Source: Syntrophales bacterium
Lineage (GTDB): Bacteria > Desulfobacterota > Syntrophia > Syntrophales > UBA2192
Direction: 5' to 3'
Length of the DNA: 55,526 nt
NCBI GenBank assembly: GCA_035506495.1
Contig: DATJPI010000294.1
Location: forward strand, 1 to 55,526
A program made the translations under genes and the position numbers. Under the pieces are notes generated by a model. It did no database searches, was not told the DNA's origin, and was given only the letters and a program-made list of their open reading frames with translations. The first letter of the stretch is position 1. Each line of letters opens with the position of its first letter. Positions 165-55,444 of this stretch are shown piece by piece.

Positions 165-1331
165 ATGCAAAACTTCGTGTTTGAAAACCCCACACGGATC
201 ATTTTCGGGAAAGGATCCATCTCCAAGATCGGAGCCGAGGTCAAGCGCTTCGGTAACCGGGTTCTCATGGTCTATGGGAAGAGCAGTATCCGAACGACGG
301 GCATCTACGAGCAGGTCCTGAATTCCCTCAAGGAGGCAGGGATTGACATCCTCGAGCTTCCCGGGGTGAAGTCCAACCCCCTGCTCTCCAAGGCAAAGGA
401 AGGCATTGCGCTTGCCCGCGAAAAGAAGGTCGACGTGGTCCTCGCAGTGGGCGGGGGCAGTGTGATCGACACGGCCAAGACGATTGCTGCAGGGATTAAG
501 GCCGATCACGACCCCTGGGAGTTTTTCGTCTACACGAAACTCGTGAAGGATGCCCTGCCCGTTCTGGTGGTTCTGACGCTCTCGGCCAGCGCCTCGGAGA
601 TGAACCCGGCAGCAGTCATCACAAAAGACGAGACGTGCCAAAAATTCAGCGTACGCAGCCCATTCATTCAGCCGAAGACGTCGATCCTCGACCCCGAGGC
701 CCTCTATTCACTCTCTCCAGCCTATACAGCATACAGCGCCGTTGACATCATCACGCACATGCTCGAGGGCTACTTCACCAACTCCGAGACAGGCGAGAGT
801 CCCCTGCAGGACCGGATGATCTATTCCTTCATGAAGACGATCATGGAGGCCACCGAAAAGTCGCTTGCTCATCCAAAGGACTACGATGCGCGGGCGAATT
901 TCATGTGGTCCGGCACGCTGGCCTTCAACGGTCTCACGACGGCCGGCATGGGCATCGTGGGCTTCCCCGTCCACATGATCGAGCATTCGCTCTCGGCCCT
1001 TTACGATATCGCGCACGGCGCGGGCCTTTCCATCGTGCTTCCCGGATGGATGGCCTGGTCGGCAAAGCGAAAATCCGCCCGCTTCGCACGGCTGGCACGG
1101 GAATTTTTCCAGGTGGTCGAGGTCGATGATGCAAAGGCGGCCGCAGCAGGTATTACGAAACTCAAATCCTGGTTCAGCACCCTCAAGAGTCCCGTGTCCC
1201 TGAGGGAAGGAGGCATCCCCGAGGGCGATATCGAGAAGATCGCTGACAACGCCGTGCAGCTTGCCCAGACGTGGAAGTTGAAAGACTACACGAAAGACGT
1301 GATCATCGACGTCCTGAACCACTGCCGCTGA
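165..1331 (+). CDS. Iron-containing (group III) alcohol dehydrogenase
   Basis: 388-aa ORF. It has the GGGSxxD motif (LAVGGGSVIDTAK) and a His-rich metal site (HMIEHSLSALYDIAHG) typical of Fe-ADH/butanol dehydrogenase-like enzymes. Confidence 0.85.
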   Translation: MQNFVFENPTRIIFGKGSISKIGAEVKRFGNRVLMVYGKSSIRTTGIYEQVLNSLKEAGIDILELPGVKSNPLLSKAKEGIALAREKKVDVVLAVGGGSVIDTAKTIAAGIKADHDPWEFFVYTKLVKDALPVLVVLTLSASASEMNPAAVITKDETCQKFSVRSPFIQPKTSILDPEALYSLSPAYTAYSAVDIITHMLEGYFTNSETGESPLQDRMIYSFMKTIMEATEKSLAHPKDYDARANFMWSGTLAFNGLTTAGMGIVGFPVHMIEHSLSALYDIAHGAGLSIVLPGWMAWSAKRKSARFARLAREFFQVVEVDDAKAAAAGITKLKSWFSTLKSPVSLREGGIPEGDIEKIADNAVQLAQTWKLKDYTKDVIIDVLNHCR

Positions 1332-1516: not shown

Positions 1517-1530
1517 AGGTTATTTCAAAG

Positions 1531-2112
1531 ATGACGGGAATTATCTTAGCAGGCGGCAAGGCCAACCGCATGGGAGGCTTGAACAAGGCCTTTATCGAGG
1601 TCGGGGGCCAGCGGCTTATCGAGCGGACACTCCGCGTGTATCGATCCCTCTTCCAGCAGATCATCATCTCGACAAACTCGCCGCTCGACTACCTGGAATT
1701 CGACGCGCAGATCGTCACTGACATCTACAGGGGAAAGGGGCCTCTCGGGGGGATCCACGCGGGGCTCCTTCATGCAACCGGTGAGCATGTTTTTGTCTCG
1801 GCCTGCGACATGCCATACCTCAGCGAGGAATTCATCCGGTACATGATACAGCAGGCCGCTGATTACGACCTGGTGGTTCCCGTAACCGCCAACGGTTTCG
1901 AATCGCTGCATGCCATCTATTCGAAAAAGTGCCTCCCTGTCATTGAATCACAGATCGAGCGAAACGAGTTGAAGGTTTCCCTGCTCTTCAGGAAGTTCAG
2001 GACCCGCGAGATCCAGGGCGAGGAAATCCGTCGTTTCGATCCCGAGGGTAAGCTCTTCGCCAACCTCAACCGCCCCGAGGATCTGAGCGAAAGATTCGCT
2101 CCCGATCCATGA
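1531..2112 (+). CDS. mobA: Molybdenum cofactor guanylyltransferase
   Basis: 193-aa ORF with the N-terminal GIILAGGKANRMGG motif characteristic of MobA-type nucleotidyltransferases. Confidence 0.8.
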   Translation: MTGIILAGGKANRMGGLNKAFIEVGGQRLIERTLRVYRSLFQQIIISTNSPLDYLEFDAQIVTDIYRGKGPLGGIHAGLLHATGEHVFVSACDMPYLSEEFIRYMIQQAADYDLVVPVTANGFESLHAIYSKKCLPVIESQIERNELKVSLLFRKFRTREIQGEEIRRFDPEGKLFANLNRPEDLSERFAPDP

Positions 2113-2316: not shown

Positions 2317-3549
2317 ATGAGCGAGGAGAAGCTTTTTGGGATGCCGGCCGAGAAAGGCCGATGGATGTTTGTCGTTCTGGGCTTTATCATCAATATCTGC
2401 CTGGGCAGCGTCTACGCCTACAGCGTATTCAGGGGCCCCGTCCAGAAGCTCCTGAACATGAGTGCCACCGAGGCAGGGCTGCCCTTCATGGTCTTCCTGG
2501 CCCTCTTTGCCACCATGGTGTTCTTCGGCGGCCTTATCCTGGCCAAGCTCGGCCCCAAGATGCTGGGCTGGCTCGGCGGAATCGTTGTCGGTATCGGCTG
2601 GATCCTGGCCAGCTTCTCCACAAGCGGCACGATGCTGACGATCACCTACGGGCTGATCGGTGGCGCCGGTGTGGGCCTTGCCTACGGAGTGCCTCTGGCC
2701 GTCGCGGGCCGATGGTTCCCCGACAAGCGCGGCCTCGCACTGGGCTTGACGCTCGCCGGGTTCGGCGGCTCCCCCTTCGTGTCGGCCAACGTTGCGGCGG
2801 CCCTCATCAAGGCCGTGGGCCCCATGCAGACCTTCTTCTACATGGGAGTGGCCTTCCTGGCCATTGTGGTCGTGTGCTTCATTCCCTTCCGCTTCCCCAA
2901 GGACGGCTGGCTCCCCGCGGGCTGGAAGCCGCCTGCAGCGGCCGCGGCAAGCGCGATTGACCTCAACATGGCTCAAATGTCGAAAACCTCCACGTTCTAC
3001 GGCCTGTTCCTCTGCTATACGATCGGATGCCTTGCGGGACTGATGGCCATCGGCATCTCCGCCTCCGTTGCCCAGGAAATCATCAAGATCGACGCGGCCA
3101 CGGCGGCAACGCTCGTGGGCGTGTTCGCGATCTTCAACGGCGTGGGACGGCCTATTTTCGGCGTGCTGACAGACAAGCTCTCTCCCAAGATGGCGGCCAT
3201 CATCTCCTTCGTCATCATCCTCGCCTGCTCGCTGGGCATGCTCGCCGCAGGCCCCGGAAGCGTGATGCTTTACACCATCTGCTTCATCGGGTTCTGGCTC
3301 TGCCTCGGCGGCTGGCTGGCCATCGCGCCCACGGCAACGACAATCTTCTTCGGCGTGAAAAACTATGCCAAAAACTACGGCTTGGTCTACTTCGCCTACG
3401 GCATCGGGGCCATCCTCGGAGGCATCATCGCCGGCCAGGCAAAGGACACCTTCGGTTCTTTCTCCGTCGCCTTCTATCCAACAGCGGGCCTGGCGGTGCT
3501 GGGCATACTCATCGCCTTCATGATGATGAAACCGGTTAAGAAAGCATAA
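2317..3549 (+). CDS. MFS transporter (oxalate/formate antiporter-like)
   Basis: About 410-aa polytopic ORF with roughly 12 hydrophobic segments. The ORF opens at 2299, but the ATG at 2317 is preceded by GAGGGAGGG 4 nt upstream, so I chose it as the start. Confidence 0.75.
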   Translation: MSEEKLFGMPAEKGRWMFVVLGFIINICLGSVYAYSVFRGPVQKLLNMSATEAGLPFMVFLALFATMVFFGGLILAKLGPKMLGWLGGIVVGIGWILASFSTSGTMLTITYGLIGGAGVGLAYGVPLAVAGRWFPDKRGLALGLTLAGFGGSPFVSANVAAALIKAVGPMQTFFYMGVAFLAIVVVCFIPFRFPKDGWLPAGWKPPAAAAASAIDLNMAQMSKTSTFYGLFLCYTIGCLAGLMAIGISASVAQEIIKIDAATAATLVGVFAIFNGVGRPIFGVLTDKLSPKMAAIISFVIILACSLGMLAAGPGSVMLYTICFIGFWLCLGGWLAIAPTATTIFFGVKNYAKNYGLVYFAYGIGAILGGIIAGQAKDTFGSFSVAFYPTAGLAVLGILIAFMMMKPVKKA

Positions 3550-51394: not shown

Positions 51395-51566
51395 AGTGTT
51401 TCATCTCCAGTCAGGATGAGCAAGATGATACTCTGAACCGAAAGGCTGGTCAAACAGGTTCAGATGCAAGGCAGCCGACGTCCCGAGGAGCGAGGCGTAC
51501 TTTTGCGTACGTTGAGCGACGAGGGCCGAGGCGAACGCTGCAGATGGCCTGTTTCACCAGCCTCAT

Positions 51567-53177
<1,611 letters not shown>

Positions 53178-53193
53178 CTTCTTTTTCCCCCTC

Positions 53194-53236
53194 AAATAAA
53201 AAATCCGTTACCAGGGAGCCTGATAACGGATTTTTT
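53194..53236 (-). terminator. Strong intrinsic terminator / attenuator immediately upstream of the cimA RBS
   Basis: The minus-strand RNA is AAAAAAUCCGUUAUCAGG-CUC-CCUGGUAACGGAUUUUUU followed by AUUU. The stem is 18 bp with one U-G pair. That position is a C-A mismatch on the plus strand, so the hairpin is better on the minus strand. Confidence 0.8.
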
Positions 53237-53268
53237 GGATTCCTTCCGGTTGTTACATCAAGCCATCA

Positions 53269-53346
53269 TCAGCCCCCTACGCCGCCCGGACGTATGCCGA
53301 TTATGTTGATAATAATGGGGATGATCGTGCCGATGATGTTCTTCAT
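53269..53346 (-). CDS. Isoleucine-rich leader peptide (25 aa)
   Basis: The peptide is MKNIIGTIIPIIINIIGIRPGGVGG, followed by TGA TGA. It has 10 Ile in 25 codons, using ATC, ATT and ATA. It lies between a promoter-like element and the terminator upstream of cimA. No strong Shine-Dalgarno sequence is present. Confidence 0.55.
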   Translation of the reverse strand: MKNIIGTIIPIIINIIGIRPGGVGG

Positions 53347-53376
53347 GAAAAAGCCCAATCGTTTTAAGTAGGACGA

Positions 53377-53405
53377 AGCATAAAGTGTGCCGCCCTGTTT
53401 GTCAA
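53377..53405 (-). promoter_or_regulatory. Sigma-70-like promoter for the cimA leader
   Basis: The minus strand reads TTGACA, a 17-nt spacer, then TATGCT. It lies about 30 nt upstream of the leader-peptide ATG and just after the stop of the upstream gene. Confidence 0.45.
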
Positions 53406-53412
53406 TGAAAAT

Positions 53413-54018
53413 TTACTCGGTCGTTCTGTTGTCACGAGTCTCGTCTCCACCCGCAGAGGGGTAGCAGGTCTCTAAGGGCAGTCCTGTATTGCGGATGTAA
53501 TCGGAGGCATATCCGATGTAGCCGCCGCTGCAGCTGCCCGCATCGATGGCGCCCGAGGAGCCGCAGGACACGAGGACCTGCTCCGAGAGGTTGAGATTGA
53601 CACCCGGGGTATTACTGCTTCTCAGTGCGGAAGATTCGAGAGCCGCCGTTGTGGCAAAGGCCCAGCAGCTCCCACAGCCCCCTTGGTTCCTTACGGGTGT
53701 AACGAAACTCTGCTCTCCGACATTGTGCCAATCGAAGCCGGAAGGAACTGTAGCAGCATATGGCCCGGCGGTGACAACCTCTGAGCCTGCATTCAATCCA
53801 GTGAGGCCTGTGGGTTCGATGAGACCGAGGCGTGCCTGTCTTTGCTCCGGACTCAGCCGGGTCATGGAAGTCTCACCGGCTTGCCACCGGGCCTGTTTTG
53901 CAGCTATCGCGGCTCTGACCTGTGAAATTTCATCGGCAAGGGATAGTGATGCGGACGATGTGGCAAAAACAAGGGAGGCCGCCAGGAGGAATGTAGCAGC
54001 GATCGGGAGTTTCCTCAT
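53413..54018 (-). pseudogene. Truncated papain-like (C1) cysteine peptidase, N-terminal half only
   Basis: 201-aa ORF with a signal peptide, a pro-region-like segment and the active-site Cys motif NQGGCGSCWAFATTAALES. It ends about 80 aa after that Cys, before the region where the catalytic His and Asn would lie. Confidence 0.55.
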
Positions 54019-54270: not shown

Positions 54271-55008
54271 TCACCTACCCACGATTTTCCAGTTGGTGTC
54301 ACTCACGACGCCCGGGATGAACAGGGTGGATGATGTCATCGTGGTCCCATTCATGAACCATACGGCAATCGTACCGGCTGTCTGGTGCTGCCAGACAAGG
54401 TCAGGATGGCCGTCACCATTGAAATCGGTAAATCCCACGACTTTCCAGTTGGTGTCACCCACGGAAGACGGAGTGAGAAGGGTCGATGACGTCATAGCGG
54501 TCTCATTCATGAACCACACATTCATCTGTCCCGTTGTCTGGTGTTGCCAGAGGATATCTGGTTTGCCATCTGAGTTGAAGTCGGCAATGCAGACGATCTG
54601 CCAGTCGAGGTCAGTGACCGAACTTGGGGTGAGCATGGAGCTAGACGCCATCGTGGTCCCCCCGTTCATGAACCACACTCCAATCGATCCTGCTGTCTGG
54701 TGCCGCCAGAGCAAATCTGGTTTGCCGTCGCCGTTGAAATCGTGACTGTTGAATATGGCAGGTGAGGTTTGTCCGCTTTCATTTACCGTGAAGGTTTGTC
54801 CCGCTACCGTCAGCGTCGTGCTCCGGGTGCTGCTCCCCGAGTTGGATGATGCGCTATAGGTCATAGCCCCTGGACCTGTGCCGCTGCTGCCGGACGTGAC
54901 GGTGATCCAGCCCGCGCTGTTCGACACGGACCAGGGGCAGCCCGGTGTCGCGAATATAGCTGGCGGCAGTTGAGATATAACCGCCACCACAGTCTCCGGA
55001 GCCGCCAC
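54271..55008 (-). CDS. BACON-like domain + three FG-GAP/VCBS-like repeats
   Basis: GCPWSVSNSAGWITVTSGSSGTGPGAMTYSASSN...LTVAGQTFTVNESG is BACON-like. It is followed by three DFNGDG(K/H)PD(L/I)(L/V)WxHQTxG...VWFMNG repeats. The 5' 155 nt overlap the upstream peptidase ORF in another frame. Confidence 0.65.
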   Translation of the reverse strand: MAAPETVVAVISQLPPAIFATPGCPWSVSNSAGWITVTSGSSGTGPGAMTYSASSNSGSSTRSTTLTVAGQTFTVNESGQTSPAIFNSHDFNGDGKPDLLWRHQTAGSIGVWFMNGGTTMASSSMLTPSSVTDLDWQIVCIADFNSDGKPDILWQHQTTGQMNVWFMNETAMTSSTLLTPSSVGDTNWKVVGFTDFNGDGHPDLVWQHQTAGTIAVWFMNGTTMTSSTLFIPGVVSDTNWKIVGR

Positions 55009-55444
55009 AGGACACGAGGACCTGTTCAGAGAGGTTGAGATCGATTCCGGGAGTATTGTTGACTCGAAGCGTTACCGATTCCAGGGCCGCCGTCGTGGCA
55101 AAAGCCCAACAGCTTCCGCACCCGCCCTGGTTTCGGATGGGTGTGACAAAACTGCCGCCATTGTTCCGCCAGTCGAGGGTCGCCGGAGCTCCGACGATGG
55201 GGGGATCCGCCGTGAGCATTCCCTCCTCGGCCACCGTTGCCATGGTGGGCAGCACGAGGCCCAGACGAGCGACCCTTTCGTCAGCACTCAGAAAGGTCAT
55301 GGAGGTTTCGCCGGCATGCCACCGCGCCTGCCGGGCAACGATCGCGGCCTTCACATGCGTGACCTCATCCGCAAAGGACGTTGAGGCTGCAAACAAGAAA
55401 GTAGCGGCGAGAAGGAGGGAAATGGCGATCCGGTTCTTTCTCAT
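54854..55444 (-). pseudogene. Truncated papain-like (C1) cysteine peptidase paralog, out of frame with the downstream BACON/FG-GAP ORF
   Basis: 196-aa ORF with a signal peptide and NQGGCGSCWAFATTAALES. After YIRDTGLPL the frame runs into an Arg/His-rich tail. The other frame reads ATPGCPWSVSNS, which is the start of the BACON-like domain. Confidence 0.55.

Follow-up and report, generated by a model that had tools for sequence, protein, structure and literature searches.

Attenuation of transcription by a translated leader peptide is a textbook mechanism, known from the trp, thr, leu and ilv attenuators. The closest described systems for branched-chain amino acids are those of the ilvGMEDA (leader peptide IlvL) and ilvBN (leader peptide IvbL) operons of Escherichia coli and Salmonella, and the IlvL peptide is multivalent, combining isoleucine, leucine and valine codons. 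An alternative, threonine-independent isoleucine pathway is used by many anaerobes and is entered through citramalate synthase (CimA); to our knowledge, E. coli does not have this route. Here we analyse a 55,526-nucleotide (nt) stretch of DNA from a Syntrophales bacterium (contig DATJPI010000294.1 of assembly GCA_035506495.1; hereafter, the window), in which an isoleucine-rich leader open reading frame (ORF) and an intrinsic terminator lie directly before cimA. The element is very probably a classical ribosome-mediated transcription attenuator that responds to charged tRNA-Ile and governs cimA and thereby cimA-leuCD.

The cimA element shares with the ilvGMEDA and ilvBN attenuators a run of regulatory codons, the alternative 1:2, 2:3 and 3:4 pairings and a terminator placed just before the first structural gene, and its relatives of the Desulfobacterales type carry multivalent Ile/Leu/Val leaders like that of ilvL. 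It differs in its target, the committed step of the citramalate route, in the essentially monovalent leader of the window, and in lineage (Syntrophales and Desulfobacterales-type bacteria rather than Gammaproteobacteria), and we detect no sequence homology between the two. Amino acid attenuators are said to originate in Gammaproteobacteria, and Rfam holds no ilv-type leader model (PMC3766115). Leader-peptide attenuators of ilvB and leuA have nevertheless been found by comparative genomics in actinobacteria, including Corynebacterium (PMC1262725, PMC10272879, PMC11857589). They too are reported as branched-chain amino acid leader peptides outside Gammaproteobacteria, with different targets (ilvBNC, leuA), lineages and sequences, and none of those described there acts on cimA.

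In Geobacter, a leucine-specific T-box is located upstream of leuA (PMC2700814). It resembles the cimA element in being an RNA-level control of termination of a paralogous synthase gene in a formerly 'deltaproteobacterial' lineage. However, its sensor is uncharged tRNA bound to the leader RNA and not a translating ribosome, and the controlled gene is leuA and not cimA. An earlier annotation of the window made from the sequence alone (the original prediction) had mentioned T-box control of leu- or cimA-like genes in the Geobacter group; this is right for leuA but not for cimA, since none of four Geobacter-type cimA loci carries a T-box (RF00230) at the gathering threshold. It had also suggested that a leader attenuator at cimA might be undescribed. 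We found no report linking cimA or citramalate synthase to leader-peptide attenuation in the literature searched, although an earlier mention may exist; Naville and Gautheret (2010) do not mention these taxa or genes.

Results

The cimA leader encodes an isoleucine-rich peptide and ends in a terminator

Promoter, leader ORF, terminator and cimA follow one another on the minus strand (Table 1). The original prediction had named a TTGACA-17-TATGCT promoter, a 25-codon ORF with ten Ile codons of all three kinds and a double stop, an 18-bp hairpin with a U tract, and the cimA Shine-Dalgarno sequence and start codon, and all of these are present at the positions it gave. A promoter scan also picks the same site, although by itself the scan is not significant (2 sites versus 1.4 expected). 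The stop codon of the upstream gene, at 53413, is 8 nt ahead of the -35 box. From the promoter position, transcription would start near 53370.

Table 1. Coordinates of the leader elements and regulated genes in the window
Feature	Coordinates	Strand	Details
sigma-70-type promoter	53377..53405	(-)	TTGACA 53405-53400, 17-nt spacer, TATGCT 53382-53377
leader ORF (cimA leader peptide)	53266..53346	(-)	ATG at 53346; 25 codons, 10 Ile; double stop UGA UGA included (TGA 53271-53269, second TGA 53268-53266)
region 1	53329..53338	(-)	CAUCAUCGGC, 53338-53329; codons 3-6, including Ile4 and Ile5; pairs with region 2 when ribosome-free
region 2, antiterminator 5' strand	53263..53274	(-)	CUGAUGAUGG, 53272-53263, plus G53274; overlaps both stop codons
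helix B strand	53256..53263	(-)	GCUUGAUG, tandem second copy of region 2; can pair with UAUCAGGC, 53225-53218
region 3, upper 5' arm of terminator	53218..53230	(-)	CCGUUAUCAG, 53229-53220; common to antiterminator and terminator
intrinsic terminator	53194..53236	(-)	18-bp hairpin 53236-53198; 3' arm is region 4, 53215-53198; U tract UUUUUUAUUU, 53203-53194
cimA (citramalate synthase), first regulated gene	51567..53193	(-)	Shine-Dalgarno GAGGGGG 53193-53187, ATG 53177
leuC	51394-50135	(-)	TIGR02083, 646 bits
leuD	49993-49490	(-)	TIGR02087, 209 bits (cut-off 109)

The leader peptide, MKNIIGTIIPIIINIIGIRPGGVGG, is encoded with six AUC, two AUU and two AUA codons for isoleucine; it otherwise contains one Val and no Leu, and is thus essentially monovalent for Ile. 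Among the 1710 small ORFs of the window it is the richest in Ile, the runner-up having 8 Ile in 58 codons. Given that Ile makes up 5.1% of codons, ten in 25 has a probability of ~1e-7 per ORF. Codons for the end product are therefore enriched immediately 5' of the committed gene of the isoleucine pathway, as is characteristic of leader-peptide attenuators.

An intrinsic terminator lies between this ORF and the first gene, again as in leader-peptide attenuators. Its hairpin has a CUC loop and, by explicit folding, a stability of -22.6 kcal/mol, with -17.0 kcal/mol for the 12-bp G+C-containing core; the U tract is 17 nt ahead of the cimA ATG. The hairpin is absent from the output of a simple terminator scan, since six A:U pairs of the maximal stem take up the U tract; this is a limitation of the scan and not counter-evidence. 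The fold of the whole leader has a z-score of -3.6 versus shuffled sequences.

Codon usage within the leaders is skewed towards AUA. In the window and 24 related loci taken together, AUA makes up 28% of leader Ile codons versus 13% of those in each locus's longest ORF, which is mostly cimA (2/10 versus 2/39 in the window), and all of these leaders but one contain at least one AUA. The excess may reflect rare-codon sensing through tRNA-Ile2, or it may be a by-product of A/U-rich pairing constraints. Pairing confounds the excess, through GAUAAU in region 2 and AUUAUC in region 1, and we do not use AUA enrichment as support for attenuation.

Region 2 can pair with region 1 or with region 3

The original prediction could not identify an antiterminator by eye. 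Comparison with related loci reveals one: CUGAUGAUGG, which overlaps the stop codons of the leader ORF, can pair with CCGUUAUCAG in the upper 5' arm of the terminator. The helix comprises ten pairs, three of them G-U, plus an extra pair between G53274 and C53218, the latter in the loop, and as a lone hairpin it has a stability of -16.6 kcal/mol. It is mutually exclusive with the terminator and is supported by covariation, and the placement of the stop codons and constrained folds fit with its being blocked by a ribosome at the stop codon but not by one stalled at the regulatory codons. When the leader is folded as if the polymerase were just past region 3, region 3 is sequestered with a ribosome placed at any of the Ile codons and is free with a ribosome at the stop codon.

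A third pairing involves the Ile codons themselves. The minimum free energy (MFE) fold of the leader has region 1, CAUCAUCGGC, paired with GCUGAUGAUG at the end of the ORF, along with the formed terminator. This 1:2 duplex has a stability of -22.5 kcal/mol (z = -3.5), and the hairpin is predicted to act as an anti-antiterminator or as a pause hairpin.

Region 2 is tandemly duplicated at 53256-53274 (minus strand) in the window's closest clade, reading GGCUGAUGAU and then GGCUUGAUG, which offers two alternative antiterminator strands. The second copy can form helix B, GCUUGAUG:UAUCAGGC. We considered helix B as the antiterminator of the whole family and rejected it: the segment is present in L161, L162 and L081, the window's closest relatives, and absent from more distant loci, which have one copy only, while the family-wide helix overlaps the stop codons.

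The element is conserved and covaries in loci with the closest CimA

The original prediction had related the host to the Geobacter group. Comparison of CimA instead places the organism with Syntrophales-like bacteria, its nearest homologues coming from Syntrophales metagenome-assembled genomes (MAGs). We have examined 168 cimA loci, 80 from species-representative genomes, 80 from metagenomes and 8 fetched around close homologues. An Ile-rich mini-ORF with a terminator is found directly 5' of cimA in 26 of the 168, not counting one duplicate place (L164, the same as L163). These loci share the layout of the window, with a TTGACA promoter, the mini-ORF, region 2 at the stop codon and the terminator, and the element always precedes cimA, at a distance of 15-184 nt. 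They are the loci with CimA closest to that of the window (~60-92% identity) and are labelled Syntrophales, Syntrophaceae, Smithella, Desulfatiglandales and Desulfobacteraceae. The element is absent from all 141 other, more distant cimA loci.

A covariance model built from 20 of the sequences recovers all eight held-out loci, which include one duplicate place, where they are expected, with scores of 71-85 bits. It gives no further match in the window and nothing convincing in the remaining loci. Weak matches occur just 3' of cimA in two Paenibacillus genomes (L030:4059-4170, plus strand, 30.3 bits; L023:4129-4251, minus strand, 23.6 bits); these are probably mere terminator-like hairpins.

Both competing helices are maintained by compensatory change. 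In the 20-sequence alignment, 94.7% of the terminator cells are paired, against 30-52% when the partner strand is slid, and six pairs have changed on both sides; for the antiterminator the corresponding figures are 89.7%, 19-45% and five compensatory pairs. In a 27-sequence alignment derived from the model, which had been fitted to the terminator and not to the antiterminator, 90.1% of the antiterminator cells are paired (20-48% slid) and 5 of 12 pairs are compensatory. When the sequences are cut before region 4, RNAalifold predicts the core of the antiterminator helix unprompted. Most loci also have a counterpart of region 1, made of Ile codons (for example GUCAUUAUCAG or CAUCAUC), that can pair with region 2; this pairing is weak in about 8 of 27. 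Within region 3, CCGTTATCAGG is identical in 14 of 160 loci, and the terminator arm CCGUUAUCAGG is almost invariant across orders.

The leader peptides, in turn, are alike in their richness in Ile and in little else (MKNIIGTIIPIIINIIGIRPGGVGG, MFRNIIAIIIISIIIIQGAHSDLMMG, MRNILAIIIAIIIRGAHTAT, MTASSIIIIGGIIRPDITGGLISA): the rest of the sequence drifts, and the Ile-rich ORF is kept in all 26 further loci. What is fixed is the position of the frame relative to region 2. Measured from the region 2 core, the stop codon begins at -9 to +15 nt in every one of the 27 loci: nine have it at +1, with the UGA contained in CUGAU (the arrangement of the window), and sixteen at +12. In 17 of the 27, a gap of 18-21 nt separates the end of the last regulatory Ile codon from region 2; in the window the gap is 20 nt. 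With this geometry a terminating ribosome would cover region 2, and a ribosome stalled at Ile would not. The promoter is conserved as well: an exact TTGACA, preceded by an A/T-rich tract, is found at the equivalent place in 24 of the 25 related loci with enough sequence, 114-179 nt 5' of region 2 and upstream of the ORF.

The codons enriched in the leader follow the gene content of the operon

Leader codons and downstream genes could be compared in 24 loci, of which 15 have Ile-only leaders, eight an Ile cluster with a Leu run and one an Ile cluster with a Val run. The Ile-only leaders (5-11 Ile, at most one Leu) stand ahead of cimA alone or of cimA-leuCD(B): cimA is followed by leuC, with or without leuD and leuB, in the window, L081, L082, L161-L163 and L165, and by neither leuA nor leuC in L001-L005 and L166-L168. 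Leaders with a Leu run after the Ile cluster, in many cases together with Val (e.g. MRNVINNSIVIISATGILVSLLLLLVLELKPPGLIMT), precede cimA-leuA in 8 of the 8 loci with enough downstream sequence, and leuC comes next where the locus extends that far (L006-L008). That this leuA encodes 2-isopropylmalate synthase was confirmed in the four loci tested (NF002086, 696-767 bits; cut-off 532). The sole leader with a Val run, in L090 (containing EIILGVVVIVGIIISLL), is located ahead of cimA-ilvD. Since the enriched codons follow the genes of the operon, a sensor that reads codons is predicted, and the pattern is hard to square with riboswitch, T-box or protein-binding models.

Some loci that lack the leader have cimA in a different setting. 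In L009 and L011-L014, which are of the Desulfobacterales type and have no leader of their own, cimA is the fourth gene of ilvB-ilvH-ilvC-cimA, and in L091 and L094, also leaderless, it comes directly after the 3' end of an ilvC-like gene. No homologues of ilvB, ilvH or ilvC and no further copies of the motif were found in the window, and no leuA or ilv operon was found near cimA in one relative's locus extended to +/-10 kb.

Known RNA families do not account for the leader

Rfam was searched at E <= 10 on the region 52900-53700 and at gathering thresholds on the window plus 29 loci. The best match in the region is Thr_leader (RF00506) at 21.3 bits (E = 0.19), against a gathering threshold of 55, and the leader is not a member of that family: it has no runs of Thr codons and belongs to a different operon. 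A likely explanation for the weak signal is that thrL also has AUU and AUC codons, followed by an A tract, a hairpin and a U-tract terminator. The other amino acid leaders of Rfam (Leu, His, Trp, Phe) and the T-box give no match at E <= 10 in the region, and no family reaches its gathering threshold on the window or on 19 related leader loci.

Genes around the leader

CimA of the window scores 718.7 bits against TIGR00977 (cut-off 450). leuC and leuD follow in the same orientation and are presumably co-transcribed with cimA; LeuD also scores 230 bits against the equivalog model TIGR02084, slightly under its cut-off of 245.85. The order cimA-leuC-leuD recurs in L161-L165 and L169. The 172-nt spacer between cimA and leuC (51395-51566, minus strand) contains a long imperfect hairpin, GGCUGGUGAAACAGG:CCUGUUUGACCAGCC, across ~125 nt (-62.3 kcal/mol, z = -3.3), and a promoter-like TTGACC-17-TATCAT at 51453-51425 whose -35 box falls within the 3' arm of the hairpin. 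L161 and L162 share the hairpin and a TTGAC motif with the window but lack the -10 box, and the spacer of L081 is different and shorter. A promoter for leuCD within the operon is one possible role of the feature; another is in the processing or the stability of the RNA.

On the other side of the leader, the neighbouring gene varies. It is a same-strand Peptidase_C1 gene in the window, L161 and L162, a divergent SLT_2 gene in L163, a gene for an HDOD protein in L167 and a divergent AAA_17 gene in L168, from which we conclude that the element travels with cimA and not with its neighbours. The Peptidase_C1 gene of the window (53413-54018, minus strand) encodes only profile positions 1-96 of 220, the N-terminal half of the domain. 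Another such half is located at 54854-55444 (minus strand) and overlaps a BACON/FG-GAP ORF in another frame; the minus-strand coordinates concerned are 53413-54018, 54271-55008 and 54854-55444. At the same place L161 and L162 have a single protein of 626-630 amino acids with Peptidase_C1, BACON and Big_5 domains, which suggests that in the window it has been duplicated and truncated, or frameshifted.

RNA features were also seen near cimA in two other loci. In L010, a Desulfobacterales MAG, two Acido-Lenti-1 RNA matches in opposite orientations flank cimA (1529-1574, plus strand, and 3318-3363, minus strand; 44.1 and 40.8 bits, threshold 37). In L001, a Syntrophales MAG, a tRNA-Sec gene (784-877, plus strand, 73.8 bits) lies ~1.6 kb 5' of the cimA leader.

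Discussion

A model for isoleucine-dependent attenuation of cimA

The elements and their geometry, the alternative pairings, their conservation and their covariation are seen directly in the loci, and they are consistent with the following cycle. Transcription would begin at the sigma-70-type promoter that the loci share, with ribosomes translating the leader ORF of 25 codons while it emerges. With Ile-tRNA plentiful, the ribosome would reach UGAUGA and cover region 2 and most of its tandem copy; region 3 would be free to pair with region 4, and the polymerase would terminate at the U tract. With Ile-tRNA scarce, the ribosome would stall at an Ile codon; even the last of the ten lies far enough upstream to leave region 2 exposed. 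The moment region 3 is made, region 2 would capture it together with the top of the terminator stem, the terminator would fail to nucleate, and the polymerase would read through into cimA. In the absence of translation, region 1 (with the Ile codons at positions 4 and 5 of the frame) would sequester region 2, giving termination by default. The original prediction of an attenuator is thereby supported: each of the computational tests it had proposed against itself came out in its favour, in that an antiterminator exists, the mini-ORF is kept in relatives and a conserved promoter lies upstream of the ORF.

Several observations weigh against this model. The Shine-Dalgarno-like sequence of the window's leader ORF is weak (UGGG, ~10 nt 5' of the start), although several relatives have a good AAGGA at this place. 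At equilibrium, no constrained fold of the full leader favours the antiterminator hairpin (-16.6 kcal/mol) over the terminator (-22.6 kcal/mol). Any readthrough must thus come from kinetics, as it does in other attenuators, and since equilibrium folds of the full leader with a masked ribosome never antiterminate, the switch is not arguable from MFE alone. Control by Ile alone is awkward for leuCD, which also serve leucine, and would call for a basal level of readthrough, another set of leuCD genes or a promoter within the operon. Finally, compensatory changes are few, the sequences are related and shuffle controls can overstate significance; more trust can be placed in the slid-partner controls and in the held-out loci.

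Alternative explanations

It is conceivable, though unlikely, that the attenuator is real but that the leader RNA or peptide also acts in trans, or that the main effect is on translation or stability of the cimA mRNA. A precedent for action in trans is reported for the Sinorhizobium trp attenuator RNA and the peTrpL peptide (PMC7298713, PMC7968998). However, the cimA leader peptides show no conservation beyond Ile content, the terminator does not overlap the cimA Shine-Dalgarno sequence or start codon, and no structure sequestering the ribosome-binding site is evident.

We regard as improbable a terminator/antiterminator switch run by a metabolite (riboswitch), by uncharged tRNA in the manner of a T-box or by an RNA-binding protein, with the Ile-rich ORF incidental. 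The unusual sequence conservation of CCGUUAUCAGG and region 2 across orders could mark a binding site, and the weak Shine-Dalgarno sequence of the leader ORF in the window is another point in favour. The attenuator model also explains the conservation, because region 2 must complement both the Ile dicodons (AUUAUC or AUCAUC) and region 3, so that region 3 mimics an Ile dicodon. Against a switch of this kind, neither a T-box nor any other Rfam family was found at threshold on the window or the 19 leader loci, and the sole conserved feature 5' of region 2 is an open frame with a start codon, rich in Ile or in Ile, Leu and Val, whose stop is locked to region 2 in all 27 loci. Moreover, the agreement between codon identity and operon content is explained only by a sensor that reads codons.

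Hardly any weight is left for the view that the hairpin simply ends transcription of the upstream gene and that the mini-ORF arose by chance or is a separate gene for a small hydrophobic peptide, both unlinked to cimA: the hairpin, flanked by an A tract and a U tract, does look bidirectional and lies ~180 nt past the upstream stop codon, and the longer leaders of the Desulfobacterales type look like a transmembrane helix, but a conserved promoter separates the upstream gene from the ORF, that gene varies and is divergent in some loci while the element keeps its place before cimA, the antiterminator pairing and the stop-codon position are conserved, and the Ile content is far beyond chance.

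A possible family of attenuators dedicated to the citramalate route

Judged from sequence comparison, the cimA element appears to be a new family within a well-known mechanism, solidly supported by comparison and mechanistically unsurprising. What is of interest in it is the target (the citramalate pathway), the lineage and the agreement between its codons and the genes of the operon. We lean, by a modest degree, towards a broader interpretation, in which the loci represent an undescribed family of leader-peptide attenuators that is dedicated to the citramalate route in at least Syntrophales, Desulfatiglandales and Desulfobacterales, and in which the set of regulatory codons was remodelled as the operon gained or lost genes while the switch between regions 2, 3 and 4 was kept.

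The searchable literature yielded nothing on the control of cimA in these syntrophic and sulfate-reducing lineages, and a conserved Ile-codon attenuator provides a concrete, testable mechanism for it. The new covariance model can be used for annotating MAGs of these groups. With its consensus sigma-70 promoter, the element is also a compact predicted isoleucine-responsive part, which may work in E. coli strains engineered for cimA. More generally, it would extend the reach of classical attenuation well beyond Gammaproteobacteria. The match between leader codons and operon genes across the 24 loci shows neatly, in a natural setting, how the specificity of an attenuator evolves and, if the broader interpretation is true, these loci form a natural series in which that specificity can be seen evolving with the content of the operon.

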